Origin: an uncultured delta proteobacterium
GTDB lineage: Bacteria; Desulfobacterota; Binatia; UBA9968
Length of the DNA stretch: 64,000 bases
Assembly: GCA_963737905.1 (NCBI GenBank)
Contig: CAVTUQ010000013.1
Span: 32,001-96,000, forward strand
Reading direction: 5' to 3'
The notes under the pieces: generated by a model
Told to the model about the DNA's origin: nothing
Database searches by the model: none
The model's input: the letters and a program-made list of their open reading frames with translations, nothing else
Program-made: the position numbers and the translations under genes
Shown here: positions 10,436-38,362 of the stretch, piece after piece
Layout of the letters: each line of letters opens with the position of its first letter
Numbering within the stretch: the first letter of the stretch is position 1

Positions 10436-10441
10436 GTATAT

Positions 10442-12071: not shown

Positions 12072-13433
12072 ATGCCCAGAGTCCTTGTTATCGAAACGAG
12101 CGATGCGGCGCGGACATTAATTGAAAGCCGATTTGACGGTCGTCTATCCATCGAATCCACGACTACCGTAAAAGCAGGCTTAGACACCCACCAACGAAAT
12201 CCATTCCAGCTAGTCGTCTGGGACACAGTCTCCAGCCCGTCCGAGTGTGTTAATCCTGTTCAGACCCTAAAGAAATTTCTCAAGTGCCATCTTGATACCA
12301 GAATGATCATCCTTTCTGATATCACGGAGCCCAAGACCGTTAGTGTGTGCAGTCTTCCATGCGAATGGCTCCAGCAACCGGTAGATGAGACGGAATTTTT
12401 GGCGCTTGTCGAAGCGGCGCTTCACCGCAACTGTATAGCCGATGGAAGTCGATCCGCGAACATGGAATCGCCCGTCTCGACAAAGTTTGAAGGCATATTG
12501 GCCATTACGCTTACCATGCGACCGGTGCTTCAGCACATCATGAAAGCCGCCGCCGAAGATATTCCTCTCTTGATCAGCGGAGAAACGGGTACGGGCAAGG
12601 ATCTGGTGGCCGCCGCGATCCACAAAAGAAGCAGGCGGAAGCACTTTCCTTACGTGCCCGTCAACATGGGTGCGATTGCGTCTGAGCTTATCGCCAGTGA
12701 GCTGTTTGGCCACGAGAGAGGCGCCTATACAGGCGCCTCCGAATCACGCCCGGGATTGTTTGAACAGGCGCAAGGTGGAACGATCTTGCTCGATGAGATC
12801 ACGACTATTGATGAGAAAACCCAAGTTAGCCTGCTGCGGGTTTTGGAAACCAAAACCGTGCGCCGCGTGGGTGGAGAAAAGGACTTACACGTTGATGTAC
12901 GGGTCATTGCCGCGACGAATGAAAACATCGAGCAAGCAGTCGAGGCCGGGCGCTTTCGAGAGGACCTCTATTATCGCCTCGACGTCTTTCGCATCCACCT
13001 GCCACCGCTACGCGAACGTCAGGGCGCTATCTCGTTACTCACGGATCATTTCGTGGCCCGCTTTGCGGAATCGTATAAGAGAAATATCCGGTTAGTTTCC
13101 CGCGAGACCTACCGATTGATGCGACGCTATCCTTGGCCCGGCAACGTAAGAGAATTAAAGAACGTCATTCAGCGCGCGGTTTTGTTAGCGAAAGGCACCG
13201 AGCTTACACCCGACCTTCTTCCGCAACGTCTAAAGGATGTTGATGACTGTGGGGCCACAAAGTCCACCAAGCAATCCCCTATTCGTCTAGGAATGAGCCT
13301 TGGGGAGGTGGAAAAAGAATATCTTAAGATGACCCTTGCCCATATCAACGGAAACAAGATGAAAGCCGCCTCGATTTTGGGCATCAGCCGCCGTGCGCTG
13401 TATAACAAACTGAAGAGATTCGAAATCCTGTAG
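12072..13433 (+). CDS. Sigma54 enhancer-binding protein with degenerate receiver (EBP1)
   Basis: [43 protein letters not shown], Fis-type HTH. Confidence 0.93.
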   Translation: MPRVLVIETSDAARTLIESRFDGRLSIESTTTVKAGLDTHQRNPFQLVVWDTVSSPSECVNPVQTLKKFLKCHLDTRMIILSDITEPKTVSVCSLPCEWLQQPVDETEFLALVEAALHRNCIADGSRSANMESPVSTKFEGILAITLTMRPVLQHIMKAAAEDIPLLISGETGTGKDLVAAAIHKRSRRKHFPYVPVNMGAIASELIASELFGHERGAYTGASESRPGLFEQAQGGTILLDEITTIDEKTQVSLLRVLETKTVRRVGGEKDLHVDVRVIAATNENIEQAVEAGRFREDLYYRLDVFRIHLPPLRERQGAISLLTDHFVARFAESYKRNIRLVSRETYRLMRRYPWPGNVRELKNVIQRAVLLAKGTELTPDLLPQRLKDVDDCGATKSTKQSPIRLGMSLGEVEKEYLKMTLAHINGNKMKAASILGISRRALYNKLKRFEIL

Positions 13434-13801
13434 CATGTAAAATTTGCCGATGAGCTGCGAGTTTTTCTTCTCGGTAATAGTGCGTCGGCAACTAAACCGA
13501 CAGGAATCTTGATATATCTGCACGCTGAATTTCCAGTATATCGTGTTTAATCCAAAAGCCACAGATGCATAGTCAGAAGATCTGAAAGCGCCTATTCGGG
13601 GCCCGACCCTACATCCTCGGCTGTTGATGACCCCGGTCTCGCCCTACGGGTCCCACCCGTATCGCCCTAGAGTGCGGTGAAGTGCAGCTTGTGTATGTAT
13701 GCTGGCGCAAAAGAAACGGCGGCAGCAAGGCTCTTGCAGAGGCGCCGAGACTCGTACTAAGTTCCGCCTGCGAGATTCGACGCGCCGGGGGGCCAGACAA
13801 G

Positions 13802-15160
13802 ATGACCCAAATCCTCGTCATAGAAAAGCGCGGAGAGATCCGGAGAATGGTCGAGAGTCGCTTTGGCGCTCGACTGGTGGTTGAGTCTGCTCCGACTTTC
13901 ACAACCGCTCGCGAACGCATCGCCCTCGAGCCTTTCGAGATCATTATTTGGGAATTAAGGAGTCCAACGGCGAATGCCAAATTTGCCGAACGTTTTCAGA
14001 AGCTTTCCCGGGAATACCCAACGACCAAACTGGTGGTCGTTTCCGATCAAGACGAACCGGACTTCACCTCGCGTGCAAATATGGGGTGTGAATGGGTTCG
14101 TCAGCCGTTTACCGAGGGCGAACTAGTCGCCGCCATCGAAATATCCCTTGGGCCCAAGATACCACCGCATCAGAGGTTCTCGCCGGGTACGGAAATTGAA
14201 ATACCGATCGAGTTCGATGGGATTCTGGCCGTCAGTCTTGCGATGCGATCCGTGCTTCAACAGGTCACCGAAGCGGCTGCCGAAGATATTCCCGTTTTGA
14301 TCACGGGTGAGACCGGCACCGGGAAGGATCTCGTGGCTGCCGCTATTCACAAGAGAAGCAAACGAAAAAACTCGCCCTTTCTAGCGGTCAATATGGGAGC
14401 CATTGCCTCAGAGCTCGTCGCCAGTGAGCTGTTCGGCCATGAGAAGGGAGCCTTCACCGGAGCCACCGAGGCGCGCGCCGGTTTCTTTGAGCAGGCTCAA
14501 GGTGGAACGATTTTCCTTGATGAGATCACGACGATGGATGAGAAAACCCAGGTCAGCCTGCTGCGAGTTTTGGAAGCGCACACCATTCGTCGAGTGCGGG
14601 GCGAGAGAGATATAAAGGTCAATGTGCGGGTGCTGGCGGCAACAAACCAAGATGTCGAGCAATCGGTAAAAGAACAGCGTTTTCGTGAGGATCTCTATTA
14701 TCGCCTCGATGTCTTTCGCATTCACATTCCGCCGCTGCGGGACCGGCGTGGGGGTGTTTCGTTGTTAACGGATCATTTTGTCTCCCGCTTCGATGACCTT
14801 TATAAGAAGGACGTCCGCGTTGTATCGCCTCATACTTATCGTTTGCTGAGGCGTTATCCCTGGCCTGGCAACGTTCGCGAGCTGAAGAATGTGATTCAGC
14901 GCGCCGTGTTGTTGGCAAAAAGCGCCGAGCTAACTCCCGATCTGCTTCCACCGCGGATTCGAGAGGCTGACGCCTCGAGTACGGCGGAGGCTTCAAGCCA
15001 GACCCCGATTCAAGTAGGAATGCCGCTCGCAGAGATCGAAAAGGAATTCATAAAAATGACCCTCGCGTCAGTAAGCGGCAACAAGATGAAAGCTGCTTCG
15101 ACACTCGGTATTAGCCGACGCGCATTATACAACAAGTTAAAAAGATACGGTCTGCTTTGA
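13802..15160 (+). CDS. Sigma54 enhancer-binding protein with degenerate receiver (EBP2)
   Basis: [19 protein letters not shown], Fis HTH; Glu at the receiver phospho-Asp position (IIIWE); paralog of EBP1. Confidence 0.93.
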   Translation: MTQILVIEKRGEIRRMVESRFGARLVVESAPTFTTARERIALEPFEIIIWELRSPTANAKFAERFQKLSREYPTTKLVVVSDQDEPDFTSRANMGCEWVRQPFTEGELVAAIEISLGPKIPPHQRFSPGTEIEIPIEFDGILAVSLAMRSVLQQVTEAAAEDIPVLITGETGTGKDLVAAAIHKRSKRKNSPFLAVNMGAIASELVASELFGHEKGAFTGATEARAGFFEQAQGGTIFLDEITTMDEKTQVSLLRVLEAHTIRRVRGERDIKVNVRVLAATNQDVEQSVKEQRFREDLYYRLDVFRIHIPPLRDRRGGVSLLTDHFVSRFDDLYKKDVRVVSPHTYRLLRRYPWPGNVRELKNVIQRAVLLAKSAELTPDLLPPRIREADASSTAEASSQTPIQVGMPLAEIEKEFIKMTLASVSGNKMKAASTLGISRRALYNKLKRYGLL

Positions 15161-15394
15161 CTTTGATGTGAACAAAATGCACACCCGATTCGATTGATCA
15201 TCACGTCCGGGCCTTAACTTCAAACACAAATTTATTACGACCTTATCTTCGCTGCCTACATTCTTCACACAAGAGTAAGGGACGCCGCGAATTCTGCATC
15301 CGATGCTGCACAACTACAGAATAATGTGAGTTACGAGCGGCGAGCTTACCGCCTACAAGAACATAGCTCTCCGTTTTTACAAAACAATTTAACT

Positions 15395-15410
15395 TTGGCC
15401 TCGCTATTGC
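15395..15410 (+). promoter_or_regulatory. Sigma54 promoter TTGGCCTCGCTATTGC
   Basis: TGGC-N7-TTGC; identical copy at 36331-36346 (-) before the paralogous gene. Confidence 0.8.
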
Positions 15411-15425
15411 CCTGTGTCACAGGAC

Positions 15426-15926
15426 ATGGCGAAACAGATCAACAAGCTTACTTTCAACAGAGCGTCGTCGTTCTCATTCGAGCCGGATATTCTCGCTCCG
15501 CAACAGTACCTCAAGAATTACCGGCGCACTAGCCCCGCGGAACCCGAAAAGGCGCTCATGCTCGCTGTCCTCGCGGAAGCCGTAGATACTTATCAAAGAT
15601 TCGCGCTATCCGACTCGTTCCGCGCACAAGCGCTTTTTCGTGAAGTGGAAGCCTGGTTTTGGGGCGAAGAGCCCGATTCTCTTTTCTCGTTTCCGAGCAT
15701 TTGCGAGGTATTCGGCCTCGATCCGGGATTTTTGAGACGCGGGTTAATGCAATGGACAGCAAATCGACAGCGAAACACGTCACCGCGGAAAAAATTTCAA
15801 CTACATATGGAGAGAGGTCGTGCTCGCAAGCCTTTAAACACCATTGGAACGAAACCAGCTTCAAACCATTCGGGTAAGGACCGGCGCTGGGATCGTCTGG
15901 TATCGCCGGGTCTGAGTAGCGGATGA
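15426..15926 (+). CDS. Uncharacterised protein with HTH-like C-terminal segment and basic tail (copy 1)
   Basis: EPEKALMLAVL...FREVEAWFW...FSFPSICEVFGLDPGFLRRGL; close paralog at 35866-36315. Confidence 0.85.
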   Translation: MAKQINKLTFNRASSFSFEPDILAPQQYLKNYRRTSPAEPEKALMLAVLAEAVDTYQRFALSDSFRAQALFREVEAWFWGEEPDSLFSFPSICEVFGLDPGFLRRGLMQWTANRQRNTSPRKKFQLHMERGRARKPLNTIGTKPASNHSGKDRRWDRLVSPGLSSG

Positions 15927-15962: not shown

Positions 15963-16373
15963 ATGCGTGCACAAAACCCGGAACCAAAGAAAATCTTGTT
16001 GGTTTGTTCGCCGGACTGCAACCGCGTGGAGCAACACCTTCTTCATGCCGGTTATTGGGTGACCAAAGTGGGTGAAGGAGCCGCGGCCATAGAACGCGCG
16101 AAGCACGAGCTACTCAATGCCGCTGTGCTCATTTCCACAGGTAAGGAGATGGATTTAGCGGAGACGGTGTTGAATTTGAGGGACGTCAATCCCGCGGTTG
16201 AAATCATCATCATTGCCAATTTGGACAATGCTGAAGAAAAAGCTGCGCAAACGGCTGCCATCGTTCAGGCTCTGCCGGAAACGACCGTTCTGACAGTCAG
16301 GGAGCTCGATCGTTATTTGGCAGCGCCCGCATGGAAAAGGGAAGCCGGCTCGTTAGAGCGACCGCTAATCTAA
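15963..16373 (+). CDS. Stand-alone atypical receiver-like protein (copy 1)
   Basis: KILLV...AAVLISTGKEMDLAETVLNLRDVNPAVEIIII has receiver topology without the phospho-Asp; paralog at 37991. Confidence 0.75.
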   Translation: MRAQNPEPKKILLVCSPDCNRVEQHLLHAGYWVTKVGEGAAAIERAKHELLNAAVLISTGKEMDLAETVLNLRDVNPAVEIIIIANLDNAEEKAAQTAAIVQALPETTVLTVRELDRYLAAPAWKREAGSLERPLI

Positions 16374-16467: not shown

Positions 16468-17478
16468 ATGAAAAAATTCGCAGTGTGGATGGCGCTATTT
16501 CTGTTCAGCGGAATTTTCAGCTTCGCCGTTGACGGCGAGGCCGCAGACACGGTGAAACTGGCTTACGTCTCCGACTCCCCCGCTTCTTCAGCGGCCTACT
16601 GGGTAGCCAAAGACGCCGGGCTGTTTAAAAAGCATGGACTTGACGTGGAGATGCTCTTTATCAATGGAAGTACCCGGAGCGTTCAAAGCCTGATTGGCGG
16701 CGACCTGCAGTTTGCCGGAGCTGTCGGAACTTCCGCCATGAACGGCGCAATGGCTGGCGGGGACATCGCCATTATCGATGGACTGGTCAACACCCTCCCT
16801 TACTATTTGGTCGGTAACCCCCAGATCAAGTCACCCGAAGATCTAAAGGGGAGATCGGCCGCGACTCACATCCCTGGAACCTCAGCGGATTTTGCGTTGC
16901 GTCTGGCTTTGAAAAGATTTGGGATTCCCTACCAGAGTATCAAGGCGGTCATGGTGGGAGGTATGCCTGCGCGAATAGCGGCGGTGACGACCGGGCAATT
17001 AGATTTCGCCGTGGTCACCGAGCCCGGAAAGATCAAAGGGGAAAAGGCCGGACTCAAAATGATCTTAGACATGGCCAAACTCAACATACCCTTTCAGTTC
17101 ACTTGCACGGTAGCGACCAGACAACTGATCCGCGAAAATCCCAAAGCGGTTCAGCAAATGGCTGAAGCGATGGCCGAGGCGATTCACTACTATAAGACCC
17201 ACAAGCCGGAAACCATCAAGATTATGCAAAAGTATTCCCGCGGCCAGAGCCTCAACGTTTTAGAAGGTTCCTACGACGCATACAAGGATCTCTTTGTCGC
17301 AGATACCTATCCGGCCCTAGAAGGGCTCAAGAACACGCTGGAAATTCAGGCCTCCTGGGATCCTAAAGCGGCGCGCGCCAATGCGGAAGATTTTGTCGAT
17401 TTACGATTTGTCGATCAGCTAAAAAAATCCGGTTTCATCGACAAGCTGTATAAGGGCAACCAAATGAGCCGGAACTAA
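16468..17478 (+). CDS. ABC substrate-binding protein, NMT1/SsuA-like
   Basis: Signal peptide; AKDAGLFKKHGLDVE, IKSPEDLKG, FVDLRFVDQLKKSGFI. Confidence 0.88.
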   Translation: MKKFAVWMALFLFSGIFSFAVDGEAADTVKLAYVSDSPASSAAYWVAKDAGLFKKHGLDVEMLFINGSTRSVQSLIGGDLQFAGAVGTSAMNGAMAGGDIAIIDGLVNTLPYYLVGNPQIKSPEDLKGRSAATHIPGTSADFALRLALKRFGIPYQSIKAVMVGGMPARIAAVTTGQLDFAVVTEPGKIKGEKAGLKMILDMAKLNIPFQFTCTVATRQLIRENPKAVQQMAEAMAEAIHYYKTHKPETIKIMQKYSRGQSLNVLEGSYDAYKDLFVADTYPALEGLKNTLEIQASWDPKAARANAEDFVDLRFVDQLKKSGFIDKLYKGNQMSRN

Positions 17479-17547
17479 TAAACAGATCGTCACCGGCTGG
17501 GCGGCCCGCCAGGCGACCGCTACGGTTTGGTGGCGCAGGAGGAGATC

Positions 17548-18574
17548 ATGAACCAAACACGTAAACTGTTGCTACTGTCCCTGGCGAGCGCTTTTCTATT
17601 TTCCTGGTGCGCTGTCTCTCTCGCGCAAGCAAGAGACAATGACGAAATCATCGAAGCGGCAAAAAGCGAAGGCAACGTGTCCTTTTACACCACCATGAGC
17701 TTGTCCCAGAGTAAAAAGGTCGTCGATAAATTCCAACAGAAATATCCCTTCATTAAGCCGGAGCTGTTTCGCGGCGGCGGCGACGAGGTGTTGAATAGAA
17801 TTCTGAATGAGGCTCGCGGTGGCCTCTATGCCTGGGATGTCGTATCGACACGAGGAGATTCAGTTCTGACGTTAATGGATTCTAAACTGATCACGTCCTA
17901 TCGGTCACCTGAAAATAAATTCATTAGCGCGGATCTGGTCGACGACGAGGGCTATTGGACAGCTTATTATGTGAACCCCTATGTGCTCGGCTACAACACC
18001 AATCTAGTGAAAAAAGAGCGATGTTCCCAAAACTTACGAAGAGCCTCGACCTCAAGTGGAAAGGGAGAAAGATCTCCATCGAGGACTCAGCTTATGGTCT
18101 GCTGGAGGGGAACGAGCGCGGCATGGGGTAAAGAACAGGCGGTTGACCTAGTTTAAAGAAGCTCGCGACCAGGAACCCGTCGTCATGAGAGGGAACACAA
18201 ACCGGGTGCAACTCGCAATGGCGGGAGAATATCCTTTAATCATTGCTTACGCACCGACGATACAAAGAGAAACATCTGTAGGCCATCCGATGGATTGGGT
18301 CCCTCTTGAACCTGTGCCGGTTCAGGTCAACCCGATGATGCTTGCAGCCAACGCGCCCCATCCGAACGCGGGGAAGCTCTTCATAGATTTCCTCCTGTCT
18401 AAAGAGGGTCAGGAGATGCTCGTCGGTTTTAGGCGCATCCCTTCCAGGGAGGACATAGAACCCGACCCGCCTCGGCTCTTCAGAGGTTACAAACGGATTG
18501 TCGAGCATCCCGAAGATTATAAAAACTTCAATGAGACGATAAAGCTCTATCAAGAAATCCTCGGCATTCGCTAA
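17548..18574 (+). CDS. Extracellular solute-binding protein (Fe3+/thiamine-like class), frameshifted near 18010-18170
   Basis: AAKSEGNVSFYT, YNTNLVK, APHPNAGKLFIDFLLSKEGQ, split over two ORFs. Confidence 0.8.
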
Positions 18575-18713
18575 GGACAAAAGACAAGTGGGAGGAAAAA
18601 TAAACAGAGGCTGTTTATATGACTTCGATCGCAAAAGCTGTTTGCCAGTCAGCCACCTGTTTTCATTGACAATCGATCCAAGCGCTACGGACGCGAGAGA
18701 TCGGAGGAATACG

Positions 18714-18893
18714 ATGAAATGCGAACGTTGCTTTTACACGGACGGAAAGAACGCGGAATTTAGAGTCCGCAGCGACGTTATCGACCTTAAAGTTTGCCCC
18801 AGTTGCGCTAGCGAAGCGCGTGCGCTTGCGCTCAGCGGTCGAACCACTTCACCGAAGACTTTGGGTTGCGGACGACCGTTCAAAAGAACATGA
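18714..18893 (+). CDS. Small CxxC...CxxC zinc-ribbon-like protein (3' end may be frameshifted)
   Basis: GGAGG RBS then MKCERC...KVCPSCASEARAL. Confidence 0.6.
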   Translation: MKCERCFYTDGKNAEFRVRSDVIDLKVCPSCASEARALALSGRTTSPKTLGCGRPFKRT

Positions 18894-18980
18894 CGGACTT
18901 CAAATTTTTGTCGGATAGTTCTGACCGGAAAGAAAGAAGACAGTGCGAAAGATGAAGCGGACAACATCAACGGAGGTTCT

Positions 18981-20027
18981 ATGATGAAAAAAGCTGCCTG
19001 ACCCTAGTCGGCATCGGGAGCATTTGCTTTTTCTCTTGCTCTGCCCGATGCCTCCGCGGAAGACTTTTACAAGGGCAAGACCATCCGTTTCATCGTCGGC
19101 TACGCGCCCGGCGGCGGCTACGATACCTATACCCGCGCCATCGCTCGCCACATCGGCAAACACATTCCCGGAAATCCTTCTGCCGTTGTTGACAACATGG
19201 AGGGTGCGGGGAGCCTTTTAGCGGCGAATTACATGTTCAACAAAGCCGAGCCCGATGGGCTCACGGTGGGCGATTTCAATAGCGGCATGGTGACCCAGCA
19301 AGCGTTGGGGGCAAAAGGGATCCGGTTCGACGCCCGGAAGTTCGGCTGGGTCGGGTCCCCCGGCAAGGGATGGCCGACATGCATGGTGATGGGATTTACC
19401 GGGCTCAAAACCCTCGACGATGTCATCAAATCGGGAGATCAGCTTAAGTTCGGCGGAACCCGAGCCGGCGCTTCCTCGGATGATTTGCCAAAGCTCATGG
19501 ATGCGCTGATGGGAACCCATCTTCAGGTCATCTCCGGATACAAAGGCACCGGTCCGATACGTGTTGCTCTACAGCGCCGCGAGATCAACGCGCTTTGCTC
19601 CGGCTGGGAATCCATGCGCGTCACCGCGCGCGCCATGCTGGACGCCAAGGGTGATGACAAATTAATTCCTTTCGTAATTCACGGCCACGTAGAAGATCCT
19701 GAGGTTAAGGATCTGCCCCAATACACGAAAGTGATTAAGGGTGAAGAAAATGTGAAGGCCTTCAAGGCCTGGGCCAACCAATATGATTTTCAGCGGCCCC
19801 TGATGGTTCCACCGAAAACCCCAAAAGATAGATTGCAGGTCTTGCGCAAAGGATTGCAAGAAATCGTCGCGGACCCGGAATTTTTGGCGGAAGCAAAAAA
19901 GAGCAAGATGGTCATCGATAAAGTGACCGGCGAGGATATCGAGCGATCTGTAGAGGAAATTTTAACGATTACGCCGGCAGTTAAGAAAAAACTCATGGTT
20001 CTGGCACCGGCCAAGGCGAGCAAGTAA
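18981..20027 (+). CDS. TctC/Bug-family binding protein 1 (frameshift in signal peptide)
   Basis: GGAGG RBS; FYKGKTIRFIVGYAPGGGYDTY; NMEGAGS; FGWVGS. Confidence 0.85.
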
Positions 20028-20093
20028 CGCATCGGAAAAAGAAATGGAGTTTAGAATCCACCGGCTCGGCCGGCAACAATAACGGGAGACTTT

Positions 20094-21099
20094 ATGAATA
20101 AAACATGCATCGGACTGGTTTTACTGCTTTCCCTGTTCGCTTTTCCAGTGAATTCTCACGCGGCGGACCAAGTTCGTTTCGCCTACATCTCCGACTCTCC
20201 GGGGTCCTCGGCTCCCTACTGGATCGCCAAAGAAGCGGGGATCTTCAAGAAGTACGGCCTGGACACCGAACTGATCTTCATCAACGGCAGCACGCGAGGA
20301 ATCCAAAGCATGATCGCCGGCGATATTGATTTTGCGGGCGCAGTGGGCACCTCAGCGATGAATGGCGCTATGGCCGGCGGCGACGTTATGATCGTCGACA
20401 GTCTCGTCAATACCCTTCCGTACTACATTATCGGCAAGTCGAGCATTAAATCACCGGAGGACCTCAAAGGCCGCTCCGCCGCTACGCATATTCCCGGGAC
20501 GTCGGCCGATTTTGCGCTGCGTCTTGCGCTGCGGAAATTTGGCATCGATTACACGGACATCAAAGCTGTCATGGTCGGGGGCGCGGCGGCCCGCGTCGCG
20601 GCCGTGCATCAATGGACAGGTGGATTTTACGATGGTGACCGATTCGGGAAAAATTCAAGGAGAGAAGGCGGGGTTGAAGGTCATCATCGACATGGCCAAA
20701 TTGAAAATCCCGTTTCAATTTACCTGCACGGTAACCACGAAAGCGATCACCCGAGCGCGTCCGCAAACGGTGGAAAGCATGGTCAAGGCGGTGGCCGAGG
20801 CCGTGCATTTCTTTAAGAACAACAAAGAGGAATCCATCAAAATCATGTCGAAGTATACCCGCGGGCAGAAACCCGATGTTCTTGAGGGTTCTTGGGTAGC
20901 CTACAAAGATCTCTTAGTGGAAGACACCTATCCTACGTTGGAAGGTCTGGACGATACTCTGGCAGTCCAAGCCAACTGGGATCCAAAGGCCGCAAAAGTA
21001 AAGGCGGCGGATTTCGTCGATCTTCGCTTCGTCGATAATTTAAAGAAGAGCGGCTTCCTAGAAAAACTGTATGGCGGAGCCAAGCTGAGCAAGTTTTAA
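20094..21099 (+). CDS. NMT1/SsuA-like binding protein, paralog of 16468 (frameshift near 20605)
   Basis: Long identical stretches with 16468 (FAGAVGTSAMNGAMAGGD, KSPEDLKGRSAATHIPGTSADFALRLAL), split over two frames. Confidence 0.85.
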
Positions 21100-21190
21100 A
21101 GACTCTCAGGAGATCAACGGAACCTCACGAAATACGCTGACGGGGGATCACTTCGATTACTAACCTCTAACAAAAACAAAGGAGGATGCC

Positions 21191-22242
21191 ATGAAAAGAC
21201 AAATCACCCTTGCCGCAGTGATTATCGGCGCGGGACTGCTACTTAGTCTCTCCCCTACGATGGCCACAGCCGAGGACTTTTACCAGGGCAAAACCATCCG
21301 ATTTATCGTCGGCGCTCCCGCCGGAGGAGGTTACGATACTATACTCGGACAATCGCGCGCCATCTTGGCAAACATATTCCGGGAAACCCATCGATGGTCG
21401 TGGATAACATGGACGGAGCAGGGTCACTGATCGCTGCAATTACGTTATAACAAAGCTGAGCCAGATGGTCTGTCCATCGGCGTTTGGATCAGCGGACAGA
21501 TTATACGTCAAGCCTTGGCGATAGAGGCCCCAGATTTGACGGCCGAAAATTCGGCTGGATCGGCGCGCCGAGCACGGGGGACCCGACCTGCGCAATCATG
21601 GGTTTCACCGGGTTCAAAACTTGGGATGACGTGCTCCATTCCAAGCGTCCGATCAGAATGGGCGGTGTGCGAGCGGGGACCTCATATGACGATGTGCCGA
21701 CCATTTTAAACAACGTGGCGGGAACAAAATTTGAAGTGATAACGGGCTATCGGGGCACCTCCCCCATCCGTCTGGCGATGCAGAAGCAGGAAGTCGAAGG
21801 GGCGTGCTTGGGGTGGGAATCGATGCGGGTTTCGAATCGAGCCATGCTCGACGCGAAGGGTAATGACAAACTGATTCCCTTCATTACCTATAATAAGAAG
21901 TTTGAAGATCCCGAAGTTAAGGGTCTGCCGCTGTTTACCGAGGTCATAAAGGGCGAAGACAATCTGGCGACGTTTACAACTTGGGCGGCCTCTTATGAGT
22001 TCCAGCGGCCTTTTTCAGTACCGCCGGGAACGCCCCCGGAGCGGCTTGAGACCTTGCGCAAAGCCTTCGCCGCAACTTTGAGAGATCCGGAATTATTAAC
22101 CGAAGCAAACAAGTCTAAGCTCTATATTGATCCCGTATCAGGGGAAGAGGTCGACGGATATGTAAAGCAGATATATTCAATGTCGAAGAAAGTGAAGCAA
22201 AATCTAAGCTTTGGTGAAATCAACCAGAAGAAAAGTAACTGA
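21191..22242 (+). CDS. TctC/Bug-family binding protein 2 (frameshifts 21340-21520)
   Basis: FYQGKTIRFIVGAPAGGGYDT; C-terminal part paralogous to neighbours. Confidence 0.82.
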
Positions 22243-22276
22243 TTCGATCTAAAACATCGCGCGCAAGGAGGATTAG

Positions 22277-23329: not shown

Positions 23330-23400
23330 CCGTAGTTTCAGCGCTCGGATTTCAGCAGATACCGCCACGAGTCTGAAGAGAAAGCGTTCAAGGAGGAGTT

Positions 23401-24447: not shown

Positions 24448-24456
24448 GAGATATCC

Positions 24457-26574: not shown

Positions 26575-26600
26575 CGGTTTAATGCAGATCGGAGGACGAC

Positions 26601-27644: not shown

Positions 27645-27710
27645 CGCCGCGCCTGGAAACATCGACGGAAAGGTTCTACACAATTCTGAATTTCGATTGG
27701 AGGTTTCACC

Positions 27711-28751: not shown

Positions 28752-28832
28752 GTCAAATCACGAACGAACAACTAAACCTAGGCAGGATGGCACGGAGTTC
28801 AACCCTTGGCAGGAGAATAGGAGAGGTATCAG

Positions 28833-29870
28833 ATGCGACAAATTAAAGAGATAAATATCGGGTTACTGACGGTTCTGATGGTCCTTGGCTTCAGCGGCTT
28901 CGTGCAAGCCAATTCTTTGGAGGATTTGGTAGCCGGTGCCAAAAAAGAGGGGGCCTTAGAGCTCTATGGCCCGTCGACCCTCACGCCTCAAGGCGCCGAC
29001 ACGCTGGCGGCGGCCTTCAATAAAAAGTACGGCCTCAACACGAAGTTGACACTTCACCCCTCATTGAACATGACGCGCGACGTGGGAAAACTTGTAGGAA
29101 TGGCCGCCACCGGAGTGGCTCCCGAGTGGGACACGATGATCGTAACGGATGCCCACTATGCGACGCTTTGGCTGAGAAAACTCGTCGAACCCTACGATTA
29201 CAAAAGCGCGGGGGTTGATCCCCAGGTCATTCATTATGACAGCGGGTCAATTACCTTCGCCAACCAGATCGTTCTCCCGGCGTACAACAAGAAAACAATG
29301 CCCGCCAAAGATGTTCCGACGAAGTGGGAGGACCTGCTTGACCCCAAGTGGAAAGGCGGCAAGCTCGGAGTATCCACCGCAACCCATCACTTTGCCCGCC
29401 TGGCGGTGGGAGCCTGGGGCGAAGAAAAAACCGCAAAGTTCGTAAACGACATAGCGAGTCAAGAACCTGTTCTGGGAAGGCTGGCAGAATTATACAACCG
29501 CCTGCTTTTGGGTGAGATATCCATTGCGGTAACGCTTACCGACAGCAATATTAACGAAGCGAAAAAGACCGGCGCTCCCGTGGTATTTGCTGATGCAATC
29601 CAACCGGTGATTTCGCCCGCCTATCAATCAGGCGTCATTAAGGGAGCTACACATCCGAGCACCGGCCATCTCTTCTCGATTTTTCTCACTTCGGACGAAG
29701 CGCAAGATATTTGGGAAAAGTATAACGGCCAGACCTCGGCATTCGTTCCCGGCACGACCGCTTATAAATTTCTAAAGGGCAAACAAGCACTCTTCATGAA
29801 CCAGAATCAAGCCAAGACCGTGGATAAACTGGCGCGACAGTACGGCAAAATGCTCGGCTTTAACAGGTAA
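28833..29870 (+). CDS. Extracellular solute-binding protein (Fe3+/thiamine-like class)
   Basis: AGAKKEGAL, PTKWEDLLDPKWKG, ATHP; signal peptide. Confidence 0.85.
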   Translation: MRQIKEINIGLLTVLMVLGFSGFVQANSLEDLVAGAKKEGALELYGPSTLTPQGADTLAAAFNKKYGLNTKLTLHPSLNMTRDVGKLVGMAATGVAPEWDTMIVTDAHYATLWLRKLVEPYDYKSAGVDPQVIHYDSGSITFANQIVLPAYNKKTMPAKDVPTKWEDLLDPKWKGGKLGVSTATHHFARLAVGAWGEEKTAKFVNDIASQEPVLGRLAELYNRLLLGEISIAVTLTDSNINEAKKTGAPVVFADAIQPVISPAYQSGVIKGATHPSTGHLFSIFLTSDEAQDIWEKYNGQTSAFVPGTTAYKFLKGKQALFMNQNQAKTVDKLARQYGKMLGFNR

Positions 29871-29993
29871 GCGAAAAGTAGTTTATCGCTGACTCTAGTC
29901 TCGCGAATGATGCGGGTAAAATGTTCGAGGACTATGATCATTTTCTCGGATTGCACATAGGATTGGCAGTAAGCAAACTATGAAGGAATTAAG

Positions 29994-31763
29994 ATGAAAA
30001 CCGCTCCCGCGCGGGCGATGCGGCTCGATGTTTTCTCCAGATTCTCCAAGCCGTTCGAACTAGGACAGTACGGCGTTTCTTTTTTCACTGCAGGTTTGCT
30101 CGCACTCCTTATCTTGATCGTGGGCGTGCCCCTTTTGATGGTCGTGCTCATGAGCCTTCGGACGGGCTTTCCCGGTGAGGGGGGGCCACTCACCTTGCAA
30201 AACTTCGTCGACGTCTATGCGGATGTGAGCACTTATGAAGTCCTGGGCAATACGATGCTTTTCGCGCTGGGTTCTGTTGCAGTGGCGCTGCTTTTCGCCA
30301 TCCCGCTGTCCTGGCTTCTCATGCGCACGGATATCCCCTTTAAAAAGACCTTTTATGTGCTGCTCACCGTGGGAATCCTCATTCCGGTTTTCCTACGCAC
30401 AATCGCCTGGATTCTTCTATTAAGTCCCCGCATCGGCTTGCTGAATCAATGGCTCGTAAAGATTTTCAGTTTGGACGGGCCGCCCTTGAACCTCTACACC
30501 ATTACCGGAATGGCTTTTATCCAGGGAGTCTCCTTCGTCCCGGGCGCGTTTTTCATGCTCTCTGCTGCGTATCGCGCGATGGATCCTTCGCTAGAGGAGG
30601 CAGCCTATACCTCGGGCGTCAGTAAACTCACGACATTCCTAAGAATCAATGTCCCACTTACTTTGCCGGCCATTGCCGCGGTTATGGTTTATCTTTTCAT
30701 GACTGGGATTGCCGTATTCGAAGTCCCCGCCATCATCGGACTCCCTGCGAGAATCCTGGTTTTGAGCGCGCTCATCTATACGGCAACCTCTCCACCGACG
30801 GGACTGCCCGAATATGGCATAGCGGGGGCCTACGGCGGCATCATGCTCGTAGCGGGTTTGGCTCTTGCCTATTTCTACGTGCGCCTGGTTAAACAAGGAA
30901 AGAAATTCACTGTAATAACAGGGCGGGGTTACCGTCCCCGCGAGATCGCCTTGCGCCGATGGAAGTGGGTGGCCGTATCTTTTGTCCTGCTTTACCTCTC
31001 GATCGAGGTTTTTGTTCCGTTTCTGGTTCTGCTCTGGACATCATTTATGCCGTACCTTCAACTTCCTTCTGCAGCCGCTTTGAAATCGATGACGCTTAAG
31101 AACTATGTGACGATTCCCGACTACGCGGGTGCTCAGCCCTTTATCAACACTTTTATCCTCATGATCGGGGTGCCCACGATCGCTATGTTTCTCAGCGTTC
31201 TCGTTTCGTGGGCCGTGGTTCGAACCCAAGTACGCTTTCGCGGGATTTTGGATACGGTAGCGTTTTTACCTCACGCGATTCCAAGCATCTTGTTGGCCGT
31301 GGGGTTGGCTTATCTCGGTTTGGCCTATAGAGACTATTTTCCTATATACGGGACTGTTCTTATCATCATGGTGGCCCATGTCATCAACTGGATCGCTTAC
31401 GGTACCAGGACGACTAATAGTGTGATGATCCAAGTCCATCGAGAGTTGGAAGAAGCGGGGAAAGTCGCGGGAGCCTCTACACCACGTGTGGTTTGGAAGA
31501 TCGTCTTGCCTTTGATCGCCGCGGGAGTGCTCAACAGTTGGGTTTGGATCGGCATGCTGTCTTATAGAGAAGTCACCATGGCGCTGACCCTTTATACCAG
31601 GAATAGTGTTGTGATATCGACGGTGGTCTGGCAATTCTGGAGCAACGGTTGGATCCCGCAAGTATCCGCCCTCGGAGTCATCTTGATTCTTTTTGCGCTC
31701 ATTGTAGTAGGCAGCGTGAGAGTCGCGCTCGCCAGGGTCGGCGAGATCGGCTCGGCAACATAA
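29994..31763 (+). CDS. FbpB/ThiP-type ABC permease (two fused halves)
   Basis: Two EAA motifs (SLEEAAYTSG, ELEEAGKVAGA); many TM segments. Confidence 0.88.
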   Translation: MKTAPARAMRLDVFSRFSKPFELGQYGVSFFTAGLLALLILIVGVPLLMVVLMSLRTGFPGEGGPLTLQNFVDVYADVSTYEVLGNTMLFALGSVAVALLFAIPLSWLLMRTDIPFKKTFYVLLTVGILIPVFLRTIAWILLLSPRIGLLNQWLVKIFSLDGPPLNLYTITGMAFIQGVSFVPGAFFMLSAAYRAMDPSLEEAAYTSGVSKLTTFLRINVPLTLPAIAAVMVYLFMTGIAVFEVPAIIGLPARILVLSALIYTATSPPTGLPEYGIAGAYGGIMLVAGLALAYFYVRLVKQGKKFTVITGRGYRPREIALRRWKWVAVSFVLLYLSIEVFVPFLVLLWTSFMPYLQLPSAAALKSMTLKNYVTIPDYAGAQPFINTFILMIGVPTIAMFLSVLVSWAVVRTQVRFRGILDTVAFLPHAIPSILLAVGLAYLGLAYRDYFPIYGTVLIIMVAHVINWIAYGTRTTNSVMIQVHRELEEAGKVAGASTPRVVWKIVLPLIAAGVLNSWVWIGMLSYREVTMALTLYTRNSVVISTVVWQFWSNGWIPQVSALGVILILFALIVVGSVRVALARVGEIGSAT

Positions 31764-31841
31764 CGGGTATGGAAAACATTTGGCGACGGAGAGGCCGCGA
31801 AATAAGCGGGCGAATCTTTGTATCGCATATCAAGGAGGTCA

Positions 31842-32819
31842 ATGATGGATCTCAAAAGACTCTTGCAGGTTATCGGTCTAATTTTGATTCTACCCGCGCT
31901 TGCTGCAGCGCAAGAAGAAATCAAGTTTCCTGTGGCGGCTTCGTCCAAGGTCCTTGGCTTTGCTCCCCTCTGGGCGGCCTCGGGAATGGGGTTTCTCAAA
32001 CGGGAAGGTCTCGACTCCGAAGTGACTGCGATCCGTGGAACGGCGCCAACGATGCAAGCGCTAATTTCCGATTCCATCTATGTCGCGCTCTCAGCCAACG
32101 ACGGGCCTATTGGGCTGGTGGAGAAGGGAATGGACATCGCGATGATCGCCGGCGGAAGCAAAACCACGCACATGATCATGGGGGGCAAGGGATACAAGAC
32201 GTATGAGGATTTGCGCGGCGCGACCATTGGCTCATCGACCCTGACTTCCGGAACCGCCTTTCTGCTTAGACGGGTGCTGAAAACCCAGGGCCTAGAATAT
32301 CCAAGGGACTACAAGCTTGTAAACGTCGGAGGAAGCGGTCCGGCTTTCACTGCTCTCAGCACGGGAAATGTTGCTGCAGCTATTCTCGCCGTTCCGATCA
32401 GTTTTCGCGCTCAGGAAATGGGCTTCAATTTGATCGGCAAGGTCACGGATATCTTTCCCAATTATCTACTCTCAAGTTTTTCGGTTCGACGCGAATGGGC
32501 GGCGGCGCATCGCGAGGAAGTCGTCCGTTTTTTGAAAGCGGTGCTGCAGGCGCGCAAATGGCTTGAGGACAATCGAAAGGCGGGAGCGGAATTTTTAGCC
32601 AAAGAACTTGACATGAAGCCGAAGCTCGCGGAGCAGGGACTCGATTATTATCTTGCGCAACGAGCTTGGGAGCCGGACCTGAGCATTGATCTAGATGGGC
32701 TAAAGACCGTGATTGAGATCTACGCGGAGCAGGCTGATTTGAAAGGTCCCGTTCCCAGTCCGGAGAAGTACGTCGACTTGAGTTACCTTAAGCAGGCCCG
32801 GAAAGAACTAGGTTGGTGA
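31842..32819 (+). CDS. NMT1/SsuA-like ABC substrate-binding protein
   Basis: AAGGAGG RBS; signal peptide; GFLKREGLD, EDLRGATIG, YVDLSYL. Confidence 0.85.
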   Translation: MMDLKRLLQVIGLILILPALAAAQEEIKFPVAASSKVLGFAPLWAASGMGFLKREGLDSEVTAIRGTAPTMQALISDSIYVALSANDGPIGLVEKGMDIAMIAGGSKTTHMIMGGKGYKTYEDLRGATIGSSTLTSGTAFLLRRVLKTQGLEYPRDYKLVNVGGSGPAFTALSTGNVAAAILAVPISFRAQEMGFNLIGKVTDIFPNYLLSSFSVRREWAAAHREEVVRFLKAVLQARKWLEDNRKAGAEFLAKELDMKPKLAEQGLDYYLAQRAWEPDLSIDLDGLKTVIEIYAEQADLKGPVPSPEKYVDLSYLKQARKELGW

Positions 32820-35420: not shown

Positions 35421-35435
35421 GCAAATAGCATGCCT
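35421..35435 (-). promoter_or_regulatory. Sigma54 promoter AGGCATGCTATTTGC
   Basis: GGC-N7-TTGC facing the SPW-SOD-USP-holin genes. Confidence 0.6.
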
Positions 35436-35570
35436 CGAAAAATCCCATGGGCTCTTGTTTTAAATTAATCGCGAGCCACAAAAACGTCACACATGTGTCT
35501 ATTCTGCAGCCATCTGGACACATGGTTCTTGCACGCCGCTAACAATGTCGGGGAATTACGCAAGTCGCCA

Positions 35571-35586
35571 TGGCATGCTTGTTGCC
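35571..35586 (+). promoter_or_regulatory. Sigma54 promoter TGGCATGCTTGTTGCC
   Basis: TGGC-N7-TTGC about 60 nt upstream of a small ORF. Confidence 0.7.
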
Positions 35587-35644
35587 GTGTATAAAACTGG
35601 ACATTTTGCGAAGTGTACGAATCGAGAAGGGAGGTCATCGAACA

Positions 35645-35776
35645 ATGATAACGCAACTAAAATTTCTCCTGCTGTTCGTTGTTCTGATTTTGATGAGTGT
35701 GGATGGCTTCTTACGGCCGGATGGCCGCGGTGGGGTTGGTCATATCGTTGATCAGTATCATCCTAATCATCCCTAG
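35645..35776 (+). CDS. 43-aa single-TM or secreted peptide
   Basis: GGGAGG RBS; MITQLKFLLLFVVLILMSVDG...HPNHP; sigma54 promoter upstream. Confidence 0.5.
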   Translation: MITQLKFLLLFVVLILMSVDGFLRPDGRGGVGHIVDQYHPNHP

Positions 35777-35865
35777 CGCAGAGATTTTCTCGCTGGGAGA
35801 TGGGCTAAGAGCGAATGCTTTCGAATGAAGTTCTGTTTTCGAGGAGTCCTCGACTGGGATTTGCA

Positions 35866-36315
35866 TCAACCCATTTTTTCGACATGATTCGAATTGCCGC
35901 AGGACGTCGGCTTGCGAGTTCGACCTCTTACCGATCGGAATTGAATTCGCCTGCGCGAGGTTGTGCCACGCAGGCGATTTGCCGTCCATTGCATTAACCC
36001 ACGCCGCAAAAATCCCGGATTGAGACCGGAGACATCACAAATACTCCGAAACGAGAAGATACCATCGGCTTCCTCACGCCAGAACCATGCTTTCACCTCA
36101 CGAAAAAGCGCTTGCCCTCGCGGTGATTCGGAGAATGCGAATTTTTGATAGGTCTCCACAGCTTGCGCCAGGACAGCGAACATGAGCGCCTTTTCCGGCT
36201 CCCCCGGCCTAGCCCGCCGGTAGTTTTTCAAATACTGCTGGGAAGCGAGAATATCCGGCTCGTATGGAAGCAGGGATGGTCCGTTCCAATTAAATCTAAT
36301 GATCTCTTTCGTCAT
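35866..36315 (-). CDS. Uncharacterised HTH-like protein (copy 2)
   Basis: Paralog of 15426 (EPDILA.QQYLKNYRR, EPEKALM.AVL, PGFLRRGLMQWTANR). Confidence 0.85.
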   Translation of the reverse strand: MTKEIIRFNWNGPSLLPYEPDILASQQYLKNYRRARPGEPEKALMFAVLAQAVETYQKFAFSESPRGQALFREVKAWFWREEADGIFSFRSICDVSGLNPGFLRRGLMQWTANRLRGTTSRRRIQFRSVRGRTRKPTSCGNSNHVEKMG

Positions 36316-36330
36316 GCGTTCTAGCGAAGG

Positions 36331-36346
36331 GCAATAGCGAGGCCAA
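36331..36346 (-). promoter_or_regulatory. Sigma54 promoter TTGGCCTCGCTATTGC
   Basis: Identical to 15395-15410, with the same 15-nt distance to ATG. Confidence 0.8.
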
Positions 36347-36610
36347 AACCAAATTATTTCGTAGAGACAGACGCTTATGAATTTGGGAAAGAAAAGAGCG
36401 AGCGCCGAAGAGGTTCAACTGTGCGGGATTTGCACACTCTAAAGAGGTCGACGAACTTTGATGTAAAGTATGTAAAGTTTGTTAGCAGAACGAAAATAGT
36501 GACGAGTTAAGCGGTCAAACTCATAAGGCGGATTATTTAAAAAGAATTGTAATTGGACAATTTAGCTTGTTATTGGTATTCCTAGATCCTCGTTTGTAAA
36601 CAAGGGCATC

Positions 36611-37624
36611 ATGGTAAAACCGTCTTCGGCCGCAAGGAACGACGTCTTTTCTCCTCAACCCTACCTGCCAAACCAATTCGAGGGGATGCTTGGAGTCAGC
36701 CTGCCGATGCTGGAAGTATTCCAACGCATCATCGAAAGCGCCTCAGCTGACATCCCGGTCTTGATCACCGGTGAGACCGGAACCGGAAAAGATCTCGTCG
36801 CCGGTGCAATCCACAATCGAAGTAGAAGAAAAGACAAACCATTTATCGCGGTAAACACAGGAGCGATGGCTGCCGAGCTGATAGCGACTGAACTGTTCGG
36901 CCATGAAAAAGGCGCATACACCGGTGCCATCGGTATGCGTAAGGGCAGTTTCGAACAAGCCAACGGCGGCACGATTTTCCTGGATGAGATCAGCACGATG
37001 GATGATAAATGTCAGATCTCCCTGCTTCGCGTATTGGAGACAAAAATGTTTCGTCGTGTGGGTGGCGAGAAAAACATTCGAGCCGACGTGCGGGTCATCG
37101 CTGCGACTAACGAGGACCTAGAGGCGGCGATCAAGAAGAATAAATTTCGTGAAGATCTCTACTATAGATTCGACGTCTTCCGCATTAATCTACCTCCATT
37201 GAGGGAAAGACCCGGCGGGCTTACCGTTCTCACCCATTATTTCTTAGCTCAGTTTGGCGGGGTCTATAATAAACCCCTACGGACCGTCTCCAACGAGACG
37301 CTCCGATGCCTTGAGAGTTATTCCTGGCCGGGTAACGTGCGGGAGCTCAAGAACGTGATCCAGCGAGCCGTCCTTATTGCGAAAGGTGAAGAACTAACAA
37401 CCGATCTTCTCCCGGCGAGAATTAGAACCGCCGGGAAGTCCGATAGGGAGTCTCTCCTGGCAAGCTTTCCGATCCATGTAGGAATGAGCCTTGAAGCTGC
37501 GGAACGGGAATTTATCGCGATGACACTCGCCTCTACTGCAGGGAACAAAAAGAGAGCCGCCTCTATCCTCGGCATTAGCCGCCGGGCTCTTTACGACAAG
37601 CTTAAAAGACACGGCTTGTTATAG
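36611..37624 (+). CDS. Sigma54 enhancer-binding protein lacking an N-terminal sensor domain (EBP3)
   Basis: AAA+ ([19 protein letters not shown]) plus Fis HTH only. Confidence 0.92.
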
Positions 37625-37678
37625 AAGGATAAGAAATATTTGATCTCGCTCAAAAAACTCGCTGCCCGCCGCTCCTCG

Positions 37679-37736
37679 TGTAAGTTATTTGCACACGACT
37701 CACGAAATTTCCTTAAATGTGTGCAAAATTTGCACG
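37679..37736. promoter_or_regulatory. Pair of TGT(G/A)-N9-CAC(A/G) enhancer-like sites
   Basis: TGTAAGTTATTTGCACA (37679) and TGTGCAAAATTTGCACG (37720), upstream of a sigma54 promoter. Confidence 0.6.
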
Positions 37737-37811
37737 CAGGAAACCTTGCACGCAGTACCCCACCCTCGCTTTCATATCATAACTTGCCGGATTGGCGGCA
37801 ATAAGACCGAC

Positions 37812-37828
37812 TTGGCATCTTGGTTGCT
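37812..37828 (+). promoter_or_regulatory. Sigma54 promoter TTGGCATCTTGGTTGCT
   Basis: TGGC-N7-TTGC upstream of the receiver-like gene. Confidence 0.75.
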
Positions 37829-37990
37829 CTAAGTTGGTAGGGGGTTGGACTGGAAATCAACAGCAGCCCTAACACCGTGGCGTGATACATCTTTCGCTGT
37901 GACGTCAACAGATCGGGTTCTGACTCGTTAGTTAAAGACTTGGCAGCACAGCATCTTGCTCCGTTGGCATCTCGGGGTGAGCGGTCTTCA

Positions 37991-38362
37991 ATGAGGATAG
38001 AGAAAATCATGCTCGTAGGCTCGGAAATCCCCCACGCGCTGATGGAGCTACTCCTTGATACGGGGTCGAGGGTAACGAAACTTCCGAGCGGGAAAACAGC
38101 CGTGTCTCACGCCCACCGAGAAACGTTCGATGCCGCGATCTTAGTCTCAACCGGGGAGGAAATGGACCTCGCGGAAACCGTATTCAATTTGAGAGACATC
38201 AATCGCTCGATGGAGATGATCATCGTGTCCGACGGTGGGGATACTGACGAAGGGGCGATTCCCAAGGAAGCTCTCGCGAGTTTCGTTCCCAACGCAAAGG
38301 TCATGACGACACAAGAACTAAAGAAGCATTTCGACTTAGTCATAAAGGTTTCCACAATGTAA
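37991..38362 (+). CDS. Stand-alone atypical receiver-like protein (copy 2)
   Basis: AAILVSTGEEMDLAETVFNLRDINRSMEMIIV; paralog of 15963. Confidence 0.75.
   Translation: MRIEKIMLVGSEIPHALMELLLDTGSRVTKLPSGKTAVSHAHRETFDAAILVSTGEEMDLAETVFNLRDINRSMEMIIVSDGGDTDEGAIPKEALASFVPNAKVMTTQELKKHFDLVIKVSTM

Follow-up and report, generated by a model that had tools for sequence, protein, structure and literature searches.

A sigma54 regulatory cassette with a predicted aspartate-less receiver, present twice in an uncultured Binatia genome

INTRODUCTION

We describe a 64,000-nucleotide stretch of DNA, called the window below, from an uncultured delta proteobacterium of the Binatia lineage (assembly GCA_963737905.1, contig CAVTUQ010000013.1, positions 32,001 to 96,000 of the forward strand). 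The window contains two copies of a regulatory cassette that combines sigma54 enhancer-binding proteins (EBPs) with members of two small-protein families, here named famA and famB. The cassette is a lineage-restricted sigma54 regulatory unit found only in some Binatia-like soil bacteria. Its architecture, an EBP gene followed by a palindrome, a sigma54 promoter, famA and/or famB and then solute-uptake genes, is very probably as given here. As an overall explanation we favour, with moderate confidence, an EBP-driven cassette in which the famA and famB products feed back on the EBP. An EBP with a dead receiver, small proteins that act in trans and a receiver without its aspartate are all of known kinds; what is new is the way they are combined, together with the autoregulated layout and the two families that Pfam lacks.

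Control of sigma54 activators whose receivers are dead or missing is known in a few cases: FlbD/FliX, FleQ/FleN, PspF/PspA and HrpRS/HrpV. The cassette adds a compact, conserved and experimentally portable unit of one EBP, an enhancer, a promoter and one or two small proteins, together with a natural variant (EBP3) that has no input domain and lies beside full-length EBPs. It also provides a first functional handle on two Pfam-less families of Binatia-like lineages that are uncultured, and on how the very large TctC/NMT1 binding-protein arrays of these lineages are regulated.

RESULTS

Genes of the two modules

The gene inventory was taken from a six-frame listing of open reading frames (ORFs) and from Pfam scans covering 59 ORFs of the window. 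It includes three EBP genes, two famA paralogs and two famB paralogs (E, expectation value; aa, amino acids):

12072..13433, plus strand: EBP1 (PF00158 with E 1.4e-64, AAA_lid_14, HTH_8; GAYTGA loop)
13802..15160, plus strand: EBP2, tandem paralog of EBP1 (PF00158 with E 2.9e-66; GAFTGA loop)
15426..15926, plus strand: famA, about 166 aa, helical, with a basic C-terminal tail
15963..16373, plus strand: famB, 136 aa, predicted stand-alone receiver without aspartate (pseudo-receiver)
35866..36315, minus strand: famA', paralog of famA, divergent from EBP3
36611..37624, plus strand: EBP3, 337 aa (PF00158 with E 1.7e-65; GAYTGA loop), N-terminal domain absent
37988..38362, plus strand: famB', paralog of famB

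The ORF of EBP2 opens at 13682, and the start at 13802 was chosen by alignment with orthologs; that of famB' opens at 37940. An initial annotation, made from the letters of the window and its ORFs, had reported three gene types that each occur twice, and all seven genes lie where it placed them. Its descriptions of the EBPs also agree with the translations: EBP1 and EBP2 are tandem paralogs with 58.6% identity, EBP3 has no input domain and begins directly at the AAA+ domain, and the GAYTGA loop of EBP1 and EBP3 is GAFTGA in EBP2. The same holds for its remark that the window encodes no histidine kinase, as HisKA or HATPase_c was found in none of the 59 ORFs scanned.

All three EBPs match PF00158 at 217-223 bits against a cut-off of 20.2, each has an AAA+ lid and a Fis-type helix-turn-helix (HTH) domain (HTH_8, 50-52 bits), and their pairwise identities range from 58.6 to 60.8%. 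Sigma54 is encoded in the genome, with rpoN on contig C37. The small proteins are likewise paralogous between the modules: famA and famA' have 63% identity across 151 aa (E 5e-67), and famB and famB' have 41% across 111 aa (E 4e-28). With such E values, chance duplication of the two pairs is excluded. The famB pair has in common the motif STG.EMDLAETV.NLRD.N, as the initial annotation had read it. All four small proteins fall below every Pfam and NCBIfam threshold.

Sigma54 promoters and palindromes

Candidate regulatory sites lie in front of famA, famA' and famB' (UAS, upstream activating sequence; nt, nucleotides):

15167..15183, no strand: palindrome TGTGAACAAAATGCACA, candidate enhancer (UAS) of the famA promoter
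15396..15411, plus strand: predicted sigma54 -24/-12 promoter TGGCCTCGCTATTGCC, 14 nt 5' of the famA ATG
36330..36345, minus strand: predicted sigma54 promoter TGGCCTCGCTATTGCC, 14 nt 5' of the famA' ATG
36420..36436, no strand: palindrome TGTGCGGGATTTGCACA, candidate UAS in the famA'/EBP3 divergent region
37720..37736, no strand: imperfect palindrome TGTGCAAAATTTGCACG, found by eye and failing the strict pattern, candidate UAS before the famB' promoter
37813..37828, plus strand: predicted sigma54 promoter TGGCATCTTGGTTGCT 5' of famB', matching at 10 of 11 scored positions

An identical 17-mer, which contains TGGCC-N6-TTGC, lies 14 nt before the ATG of both famA and famA', and each of the three promoters is preceded by a palindrome of the TGTG-N9-CACA type (imperfect before famB'). 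The window has two strict palindromes where shuffles predict 0.84; for the loose pattern, window shuffles give an expectation of 4.35 per 64 kb. A strict palindrome and a promoter score of at least 8 come together at four places genome-wide, two of which are the famA promoters. Scans for sigma70 promoters and terminators around both modules gave nothing above shuffles.

Conservation of these elements can be judged from 30 non-redundant regions (mean length 425 nt) between an EBP and the next gene. The best -24/-12 score per region is at least 9 of 10 in 20 of them, at least 8 in 24 and at least 7 in 29, and 22 contain the looser palindrome pattern. Among 2000 random 200-nt windows of the genome used as a control, 0.45% score at least 9 and 3.1% at least 8. 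With conserved sigma54 promoters in front of them, famA and famB appear to be the first products of an EBP-dependent operon, and thus targets of the EBP and not only its partners.

The -12 element ends 14 nt before the famA and famA' starts (15396-15428 and 36313-36345). With the element so near the start codon, the mRNA of famA and famA' would be nearly leaderless, at about 4 nt. The closest orthologs keep the element 13-15 nt from the start codon, and in more distant ones the leader is of the usual Shine-Dalgarno kind.

Distribution and linkage

Word-indexed searches returned 74 clusters of famA' relatives and 91 of famB relatives. The named relatives are each a 'hypothetical protein' of Candidatus Binatia metagenome-assembled genomes (MAGs), and in the ESM Atlas both families fall in unnamed Binatota clusters. 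Neither one matches a characterised system in Pfam, NCBIfam or the ESM Atlas, nor, for famA, in a profile search of PDB sequences.

For linkage we pooled 14 genome loci (L013, L026 and L029 among them) and 60 metagenome loci with famB. A same-strand EBP gene lies at most 1.5 kb 5' of famB in 28 of the 31 loci that have at least 1500 nt upstream; in those 31, famA is directly 5' of famB in 13 and directly 3' in 3, and either an EBP or famA is present in 30. When redundancy was removed at 95% identity, 72 famB loci gave 52 clusters, and 24 of these have at least 1500 nt upstream. In this set an EBP is upstream in 21, famA is upstream in 9 and downstream in 2, and 23 have one or the other. The conserved linkage to an EBP for which the initial annotation proposed a test is seen in 21 of the 24 non-redundant loci.

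The EBPs themselves were compared in a quick tree of 64 sequences, 28 of which are linked to famB (three from the window and 25 from the other loci). These 28 are set apart by a branch of length 1.12 with a Shimodaira-Hasegawa-like approximate likelihood ratio test (SH-aLRT) value of 100; beyond it fall the remaining 28 EBPs of the genome, along with eight EBPs near distant famA paralogs. On this tree the famB-linked EBPs appear to be a clade of their own, so the co-occurrence proposed earlier with one EBP clade holds for famB. Of the small proteins, famB is tightly tied to the EBP, and famA is not specific to the module, with 9 of its 11 paralogs in the genome located elsewhere.

Most related loci have a single EBP, and L121 has two in tandem. 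In a genome of the same family (G206) the order is EBP, two unknown genes and then famA-famB. The distribution of famB is patchy: among 201 sampled genomes of the phylum two have it, as do two of 101 sampled for the class, with this genome counted each time.

famB as a free pseudo-receiver

An alignment of 75 of 93 famB sequences, from which fragments and near-duplicates were dropped, was the input to an AlphaFold2 model. The model has a mean predicted local distance difference test score (pLDDT) of 79 and a predicted template modelling score (pTM) of 0.70, and contains the five strand-helix units of a receiver. Foldseek against the PDB gives 117 matches at E <= 0.001 with receivers on top and template modelling (TM) scores of about 0.6; 3crn is the best (E 2.2e-5), followed by PorX, Spo0F and the FleR receiver. 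By sequence the resemblance is much harder to detect. A famB profile finds weak matches among PDB sequences, including the FrzS pseudo-receiver (E 0.0013-0.0023), famB has no match to Response_reg even at E <= 10, and famB' reaches E 0.087 with 13.4 bits, below the cut-off of 30.2.

Catalytic positions were assigned from the strands of the model, not from a residue-level structural alignment. The residue at the end of beta3 (strand 53-58) is Ser58, and S58-T59-G60 is nearly invariant in the 75 sequences. The acidic-pair positions after beta1 are Cys15/Ser16, Ala/Asn follows beta4, and no Lys follows beta5. The model thus predicts a receiver fold with all five catalytic positions replaced, which would make famB a strongly diverged, single-domain, aspartate-less receiver (ALR). 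The earlier statement that both stand-alone receivers lack the phospho-aspartate is borne out by the fold and by the position of Ser58. Serine is given as the third commonest ALR substitution at that site in PMC4395418.

Another set of famB residues (D64, E67, T68, N71 and L72) is invariant and maps to the beta3-alpha3 loop and helix alpha3. According to PMC12632262, pseudo-receivers differ most in this region, and those that bind ligands do so there. The definition of a pseudo-receiver in the same source presumes computational recognition as a receiver; famB is recognised by fold alone. The possibility that famB is a split-off N-terminal domain of the EBP was also considered and rejected, as BLASTP found nothing (famB/EBP1, E 1.3; famB'/EBP2, E 64).

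Proposed mechanism

The favoured explanation works as follows. The EBP would bind the TGTG-N9-CACA palindrome and activate the -24/-12 promoter, and the famA and famB products would be made only when the EBP is active. Because both would appear only when the EBP fires, we propose feedback through direct binding of the two proteins to the EBP, in the manner of FliX on FlbD or PspA on PspF; on analogy with those systems this step is possible, at slightly less than even confidence. His-Asp phosphotransfer to famB would not be the input, nor, probably, would phosphotransfer to the N-terminal domain of the EBP. A signal such as a transported carboxylate or similar solute could instead enter through the conserved patch of famB or through the EBP N-terminal domain.

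A more far-reaching version is that famB, with or without famA, is a new kinase-independent controller that acts in trans on a dedicated EBP clade and is made from that EBP's own target promoter. The pair would then form a self-limiting (or self-locking) switch for solute uptake by tripartite tricarboxylate transporters (TTT) and ATP-binding cassette (ABC) transporters, and famA would found a family of small operon-specific regulators that is very large and has so far gone unrecognised. We advance this only tentatively and regard it as rather unlikely in full; if true, control of a bacterial enhancer-binding protein by a free pseudo-receiver would be seen here for the first time.

Several points count against the favoured explanation. 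A control drawn from the same loci gives scores of at least 9 in 7% and the palindrome in 15%, figures inflated by control windows that overlap true sites. Across the window there are 9 -24/-12-like sites versus 11.4 in shuffles, with no enrichment; since the number is not above shuffles, it is the location of TGGCATCTTGGTTGCT and its conserved equivalents in EBP-famB loci that give it weight. Three of the 24 non-redundant loci have no upstream EBP (among all loci it is missing from L026 and L109, which have famA-famB only, and from L138), famA is absent from about half of the famB loci, many of the loci are near-copies of one another, and metagenome assemblies of uncultured organisms are the source of them all. 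Furthermore, 13 of 80 genome loci with famA relatives have any EBP within 6 kb, and the module-linked famA sequences are not one clade (7 label changes, of which starred branches force only 1). As the famA superfamily is mostly unlinked to EBPs, and famB often occurs free of famA, famA need not act on the EBP. Phosphorylation of the EBPs by a remote kinase or by acetyl phosphate could also take place, because their N-terminal domains usually keep the aspartate (23 of 28 aligned rows). The feedback step in particular is inferred purely from gene order, and we consider it a shade less probable than its opposite.

The famA family

The famA alignment comprises 71 of 76 sequences, and the structure model was made for the paralog famA'. 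It is of moderate quality only (pLDDT 72, pTM 0.51). Residues 24-119 form five helices, the ends are disordered and the tail is basic. Foldseek against the PDB gives no match at E <= 0.001. The best Z score in a wide VIA-align search is 6.9, to unrelated helical proteins and in the range that counts as unspecific for helical models in this tool, and the best match of a famA profile among PDB sequences has E 0.41.

These results bear on an alternative, the cascade put forward in the initial annotation, in which famB modulates the EBPs and famA is an EBP-induced, DNA-binding, second-tier factor for further operons. The position of famA as the first gene behind a sigma54 promoter is consistent with it, as are the basic C-terminal tail and a segment, FSF.SIC.V.GL.P.FLRRGL, that looks HTH-like by eye. 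So is the paralogy: the genome has 11 famA copies, and groups of paralogs each have a conserved neighbour of their own, a pattern typical of transcription-factor families. The HTH itself, however, finds no support in fold or sequence. In the structure and profile searches just given the best scores are at noise level, Pfam and NCBIfam add no match, and the earlier description of famA as 'HTH-like' is unproven. Longer forms of famA, fused to a DNA-binding domain or otherwise, were not found, which is weak evidence in the same direction. A second group of shared motifs did not come to light either, although no search was aimed at one. Overall we judge the cascade unlikely.

famA belongs to a large family. 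A full profile search reaches 8100 clusters (50% identity) at E <= 0.001, of which 3614 have E <= 1e-10. The best 150 clusters listed consist entirely of small proteins (99-242 aa), and none of 45 members sampled from those 150 has a Pfam match at or above threshold; the sole match, to dsrm_Ferlin, has E 0.00083 and 20.2 bits against a cut-off of 27. In contrast to the 11 copies of famA, the genome has only two of famB. The nine further famA copies sit in unrelated contexts, and famB is present in 3 of the 80 genome loci that hold famA relatives. Neighbours of famA relatives, from scans of 106 of 150 nearest-neighbour ORFs, are varied and include DegP, AlaDH/PNT, peptidase S49, LysR, HPF and others.

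The suf operons of 15 loci have a famA paralog immediately after the Rrf2-family regulator. An example from this genome is on contig C2 (L093:4574-5128, minus strand), and L015, L022 and L027 have the same order. The genes there run Fe-S_biosyn, SufBD, SufS, Rrf2, famA, with a lipid A acyltransferase-like gene next in 7 of the 15. Other paralog groups are each associated with DegP, AlaDH/PNT, peptidase S49 or LysR. In L034, L038 and L041, a sister group of the window famA clade is directly 5' of a different, NtrC-type EBP. The EBP of L041, the one scanned, has a genuine Response_reg domain, and L034 and L041 have -24/-12-like sites shortly before famA. From these three loci, the link between famA and sigma54 may predate the famB module.

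The EBP clade and its N-terminal domain

The N-terminal domains were aligned for 28 clade members, including EBP1-3; some rows are near-copies. The loop, which makes the contact with sigma54, is GAYTGA in 26 rows and GAFTGA in 2. At the phospho-site, in addition to the 23 rows with Asp, 2 have Ala, 1 has Glu (EBP2), 1 has Asn, and the column is absent in EBP3. The first position of the acidic pair is Glu in 20 rows and Gln in 5, and the second is mainly Lys, Ala or Thr, with an acidic residue in 3. The position of the beta5 Lys is occupied by Arg in 14 rows, Gln in 6, Glu in 3, Lys in 3, Ser in 1 and Thr in 1. EBP1 keeps the Asp and has lost both the acidic pair and the Lys. Against Response_reg the domains reach 15-16 bits (E 0.013-0.029) where the cut-off is 30.2, or have no match: EBP2 has E 0.029 and 15 bits, and EBP1 no match even at E <= 10. 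From the alignment, the domain is best described as a degenerate, receiver-like one. The Glu at the EBP2 Asp site had been noticed before and stands. The earlier term 'eroded receivers' is right for the acidic pair and the Lys and, in most orthologs, not for the Asp, and with most EBPs keeping that residue, the label 'phosphorylation-independent' is not established for them.

The retained Asp also suggests a second alternative, that the cassette is an ordinary two-component output in which a remote orphan histidine kinase phosphorylates the EBP and famA and famB are accessory cargo. Hybrid kinases do exist elsewhere in the genome (e.g. L096:6724-9222), and the weak Response_reg matches would fit. 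Against this, the acidic pair is replaced and the Lys nearly gone, as listed above; the linkage to famB is kept where the Asp is missing (EBP2, L120 and two other rows) and where the whole domain is (EBP3); and no HisKA or HATPase_c was found in the scanned ORFs of the window or in 53 scanned flanking proteins of ten long related loci. We therefore consider a remote kinase improbable.

Two EBP genes elsewhere in this genome, C11:53502-54959 and C19:168506-169963, code for identical proteins, which could reflect a recent duplication or a duplicate from assembly or binning.

Downstream genes

Both modules are followed on the same strand by genes that are probably their cargo:

16468..32819, plus strand: probable cargo array of module 1 (from Pfam, paralogy and synteny with L105)
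38394..41065, plus strand: ABC permease (BPD_transp_1) and CLC channel carrying TrkA_C, directly 3' of famB' and probably the first cargo of module 2 (from Pfam)

The first array (about 16 kb) encodes NMT1-like, SBP_bac and TctC-like solute-binding proteins (SBPs), a TctA-TctB fusion (24457-26574) and an ABC permease (29994-31763). In the ten long related loci, 53 of 118 ORFs were scanned, leaving out EBP, famA, famB, small and contig-end ORFs. TctC, NMT1, SBP_bac or TctA-TctB was found 3' of famB in six of the ten (L105, L107, L110, L120, L121 and L170). A third alternative, that famB is a cytoplasmic adaptor or ligand sensor gating TTT/ABC transport or metabolism post-translationally, would suit its place directly 5' of, and co-oriented with, SBP, TctA-TctB or permease genes and its invariant patch in the region that ligand-binding pseudo-receivers use (PMC12632262), but is very doubtful, as the most constant and tightest neighbour of famB is the EBP (21/24 non-redundant loci) and the cargo varies (mostly TctC/NMT1, a permease and CLC channel in module 2, unknown genes and a trehalose-phosphatase cluster in G206).

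Four SBP genes in the array change frame midway relative to intact orthologs in L105 (17527-18574, 19026-20027, 20067-21075 and 21176-22242) and are either pseudogenes or assembly errors; the source genome is a MAG, 87.5% complete with 6.7% contamination. After module 2, positions 41297-46782 encode a GT2 glycosyltransferase, a Usp-GT2 fusion, a HAD hydrolase and SBP_bac_1. This segment is syntenic with the genes after famA-famB in G206 (L174:11600-16537), which adds a trehalose-phosphatase. It resembles a compatible-solute or sugar cluster and may be further cargo of module 2.

Comparison with known systems

PspF is an EBP without an N-terminal regulatory domain that is inhibited by PspA, and pspA is divergent from pspF and has a sigma54 promoter. 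In the same way, EBP3 has no N-terminal domain, famA' is divergent from EBP3 and is preceded by a sigma54 promoter, and the first operon product, famA', is helical and could inhibit the activator. Unlike PspA, famA and famA' have no PspA/IM30 Pfam match (E <= 0.01) and are about 150 aa long, an extra pseudo-receiver (famB) is present, and most orthologous EBPs keep the N-terminal domain. The likeness of famA'/EBP3 to psp is one of gene arrangement only.

HrpR and HrpS are tandem EBPs without N-terminal domains, and the small proteins HrpV and HrpG act in trans. Tandem paralogous EBP genes (EBP1/EBP2, and the two in L121) accompanied by small proteins are a similar arrangement; here, in contrast, EBP1 and EBP2 keep their N-terminal domains and most related loci have a single EBP.

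A further parallel is FlbD-FliX of Caulobacter crescentus, a sigma54 activator with a divergent receiver and a small trans-acting partner, as described in PMC3096577. Both systems have an NtrC-family EBP, a receiver without key phosphorylation residues, no kinase nearby and a small partner, which in our case is proposed. The differences are that the partners here would be an ALR and a helical protein, neither of a named family, that the cargo is for solute uptake and not flagella, and that the proposed partners are encoded behind the EBP's own target promoter.

EBPs of the FleQ-FleN type have a receiver-like N-terminal domain that does not serve phosphotransfer, with control by a partner protein or ligand (PMC12632262). 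In the present cassette there is instead a second, stand-alone pseudo-receiver beside the EBP, and no FleN-type ATPase. Among ALRs and pseudo-receivers, famB is like FrzS and RitR in its predicted (beta-alpha)5 fold without the phospho-Asp, and the FrzS receiver is among its best PDB sequence matches. Unlike these two, famB is undetected by Pfam Response_reg, has a single domain and is tied to one EBP clade. How bacterial pseudo-receivers switch is called 'a mystery' in that 2025 review (PMC12632262).

Our literature searches found nothing that joins Binatia with sigma54, no free pseudo-receiver paired with an EBP as judged by titles and abstracts, and, by title, no such module combining a tripartite tricarboxylate transporter with sigma-54.

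Other features of the window

A 521-aa ORF at 10382-11947 (plus strand), directly 5' of EBP1, has an N-terminus resembling a signal peptide with a lipobox. It has no Pfam or NCBIfam family, and the other loci studied have no conserved counterpart 5' of their EBP. At 6532-6547 (minus strand), TGGCACGGGTTGTGCT matches the -24/-12 pattern well; it is 5' of an unannotated ORF (5704-6216, minus strand) beside a UbiD-family gene.

Positions 53581-64000 form a patch of defence or toxin-antitoxin-like genes, several of them short. Its members include DUF3368, a fragment of a TOTE-system AEP domain (54869-55492), a ResIII fragment, a PIN protein (59630-60052), a HEPN AbiU2 protein (61424-61984) and an NYN/OST-HTH protein (62779 onward). 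The G+C content climbs to 0.62 at the extreme end of the window.

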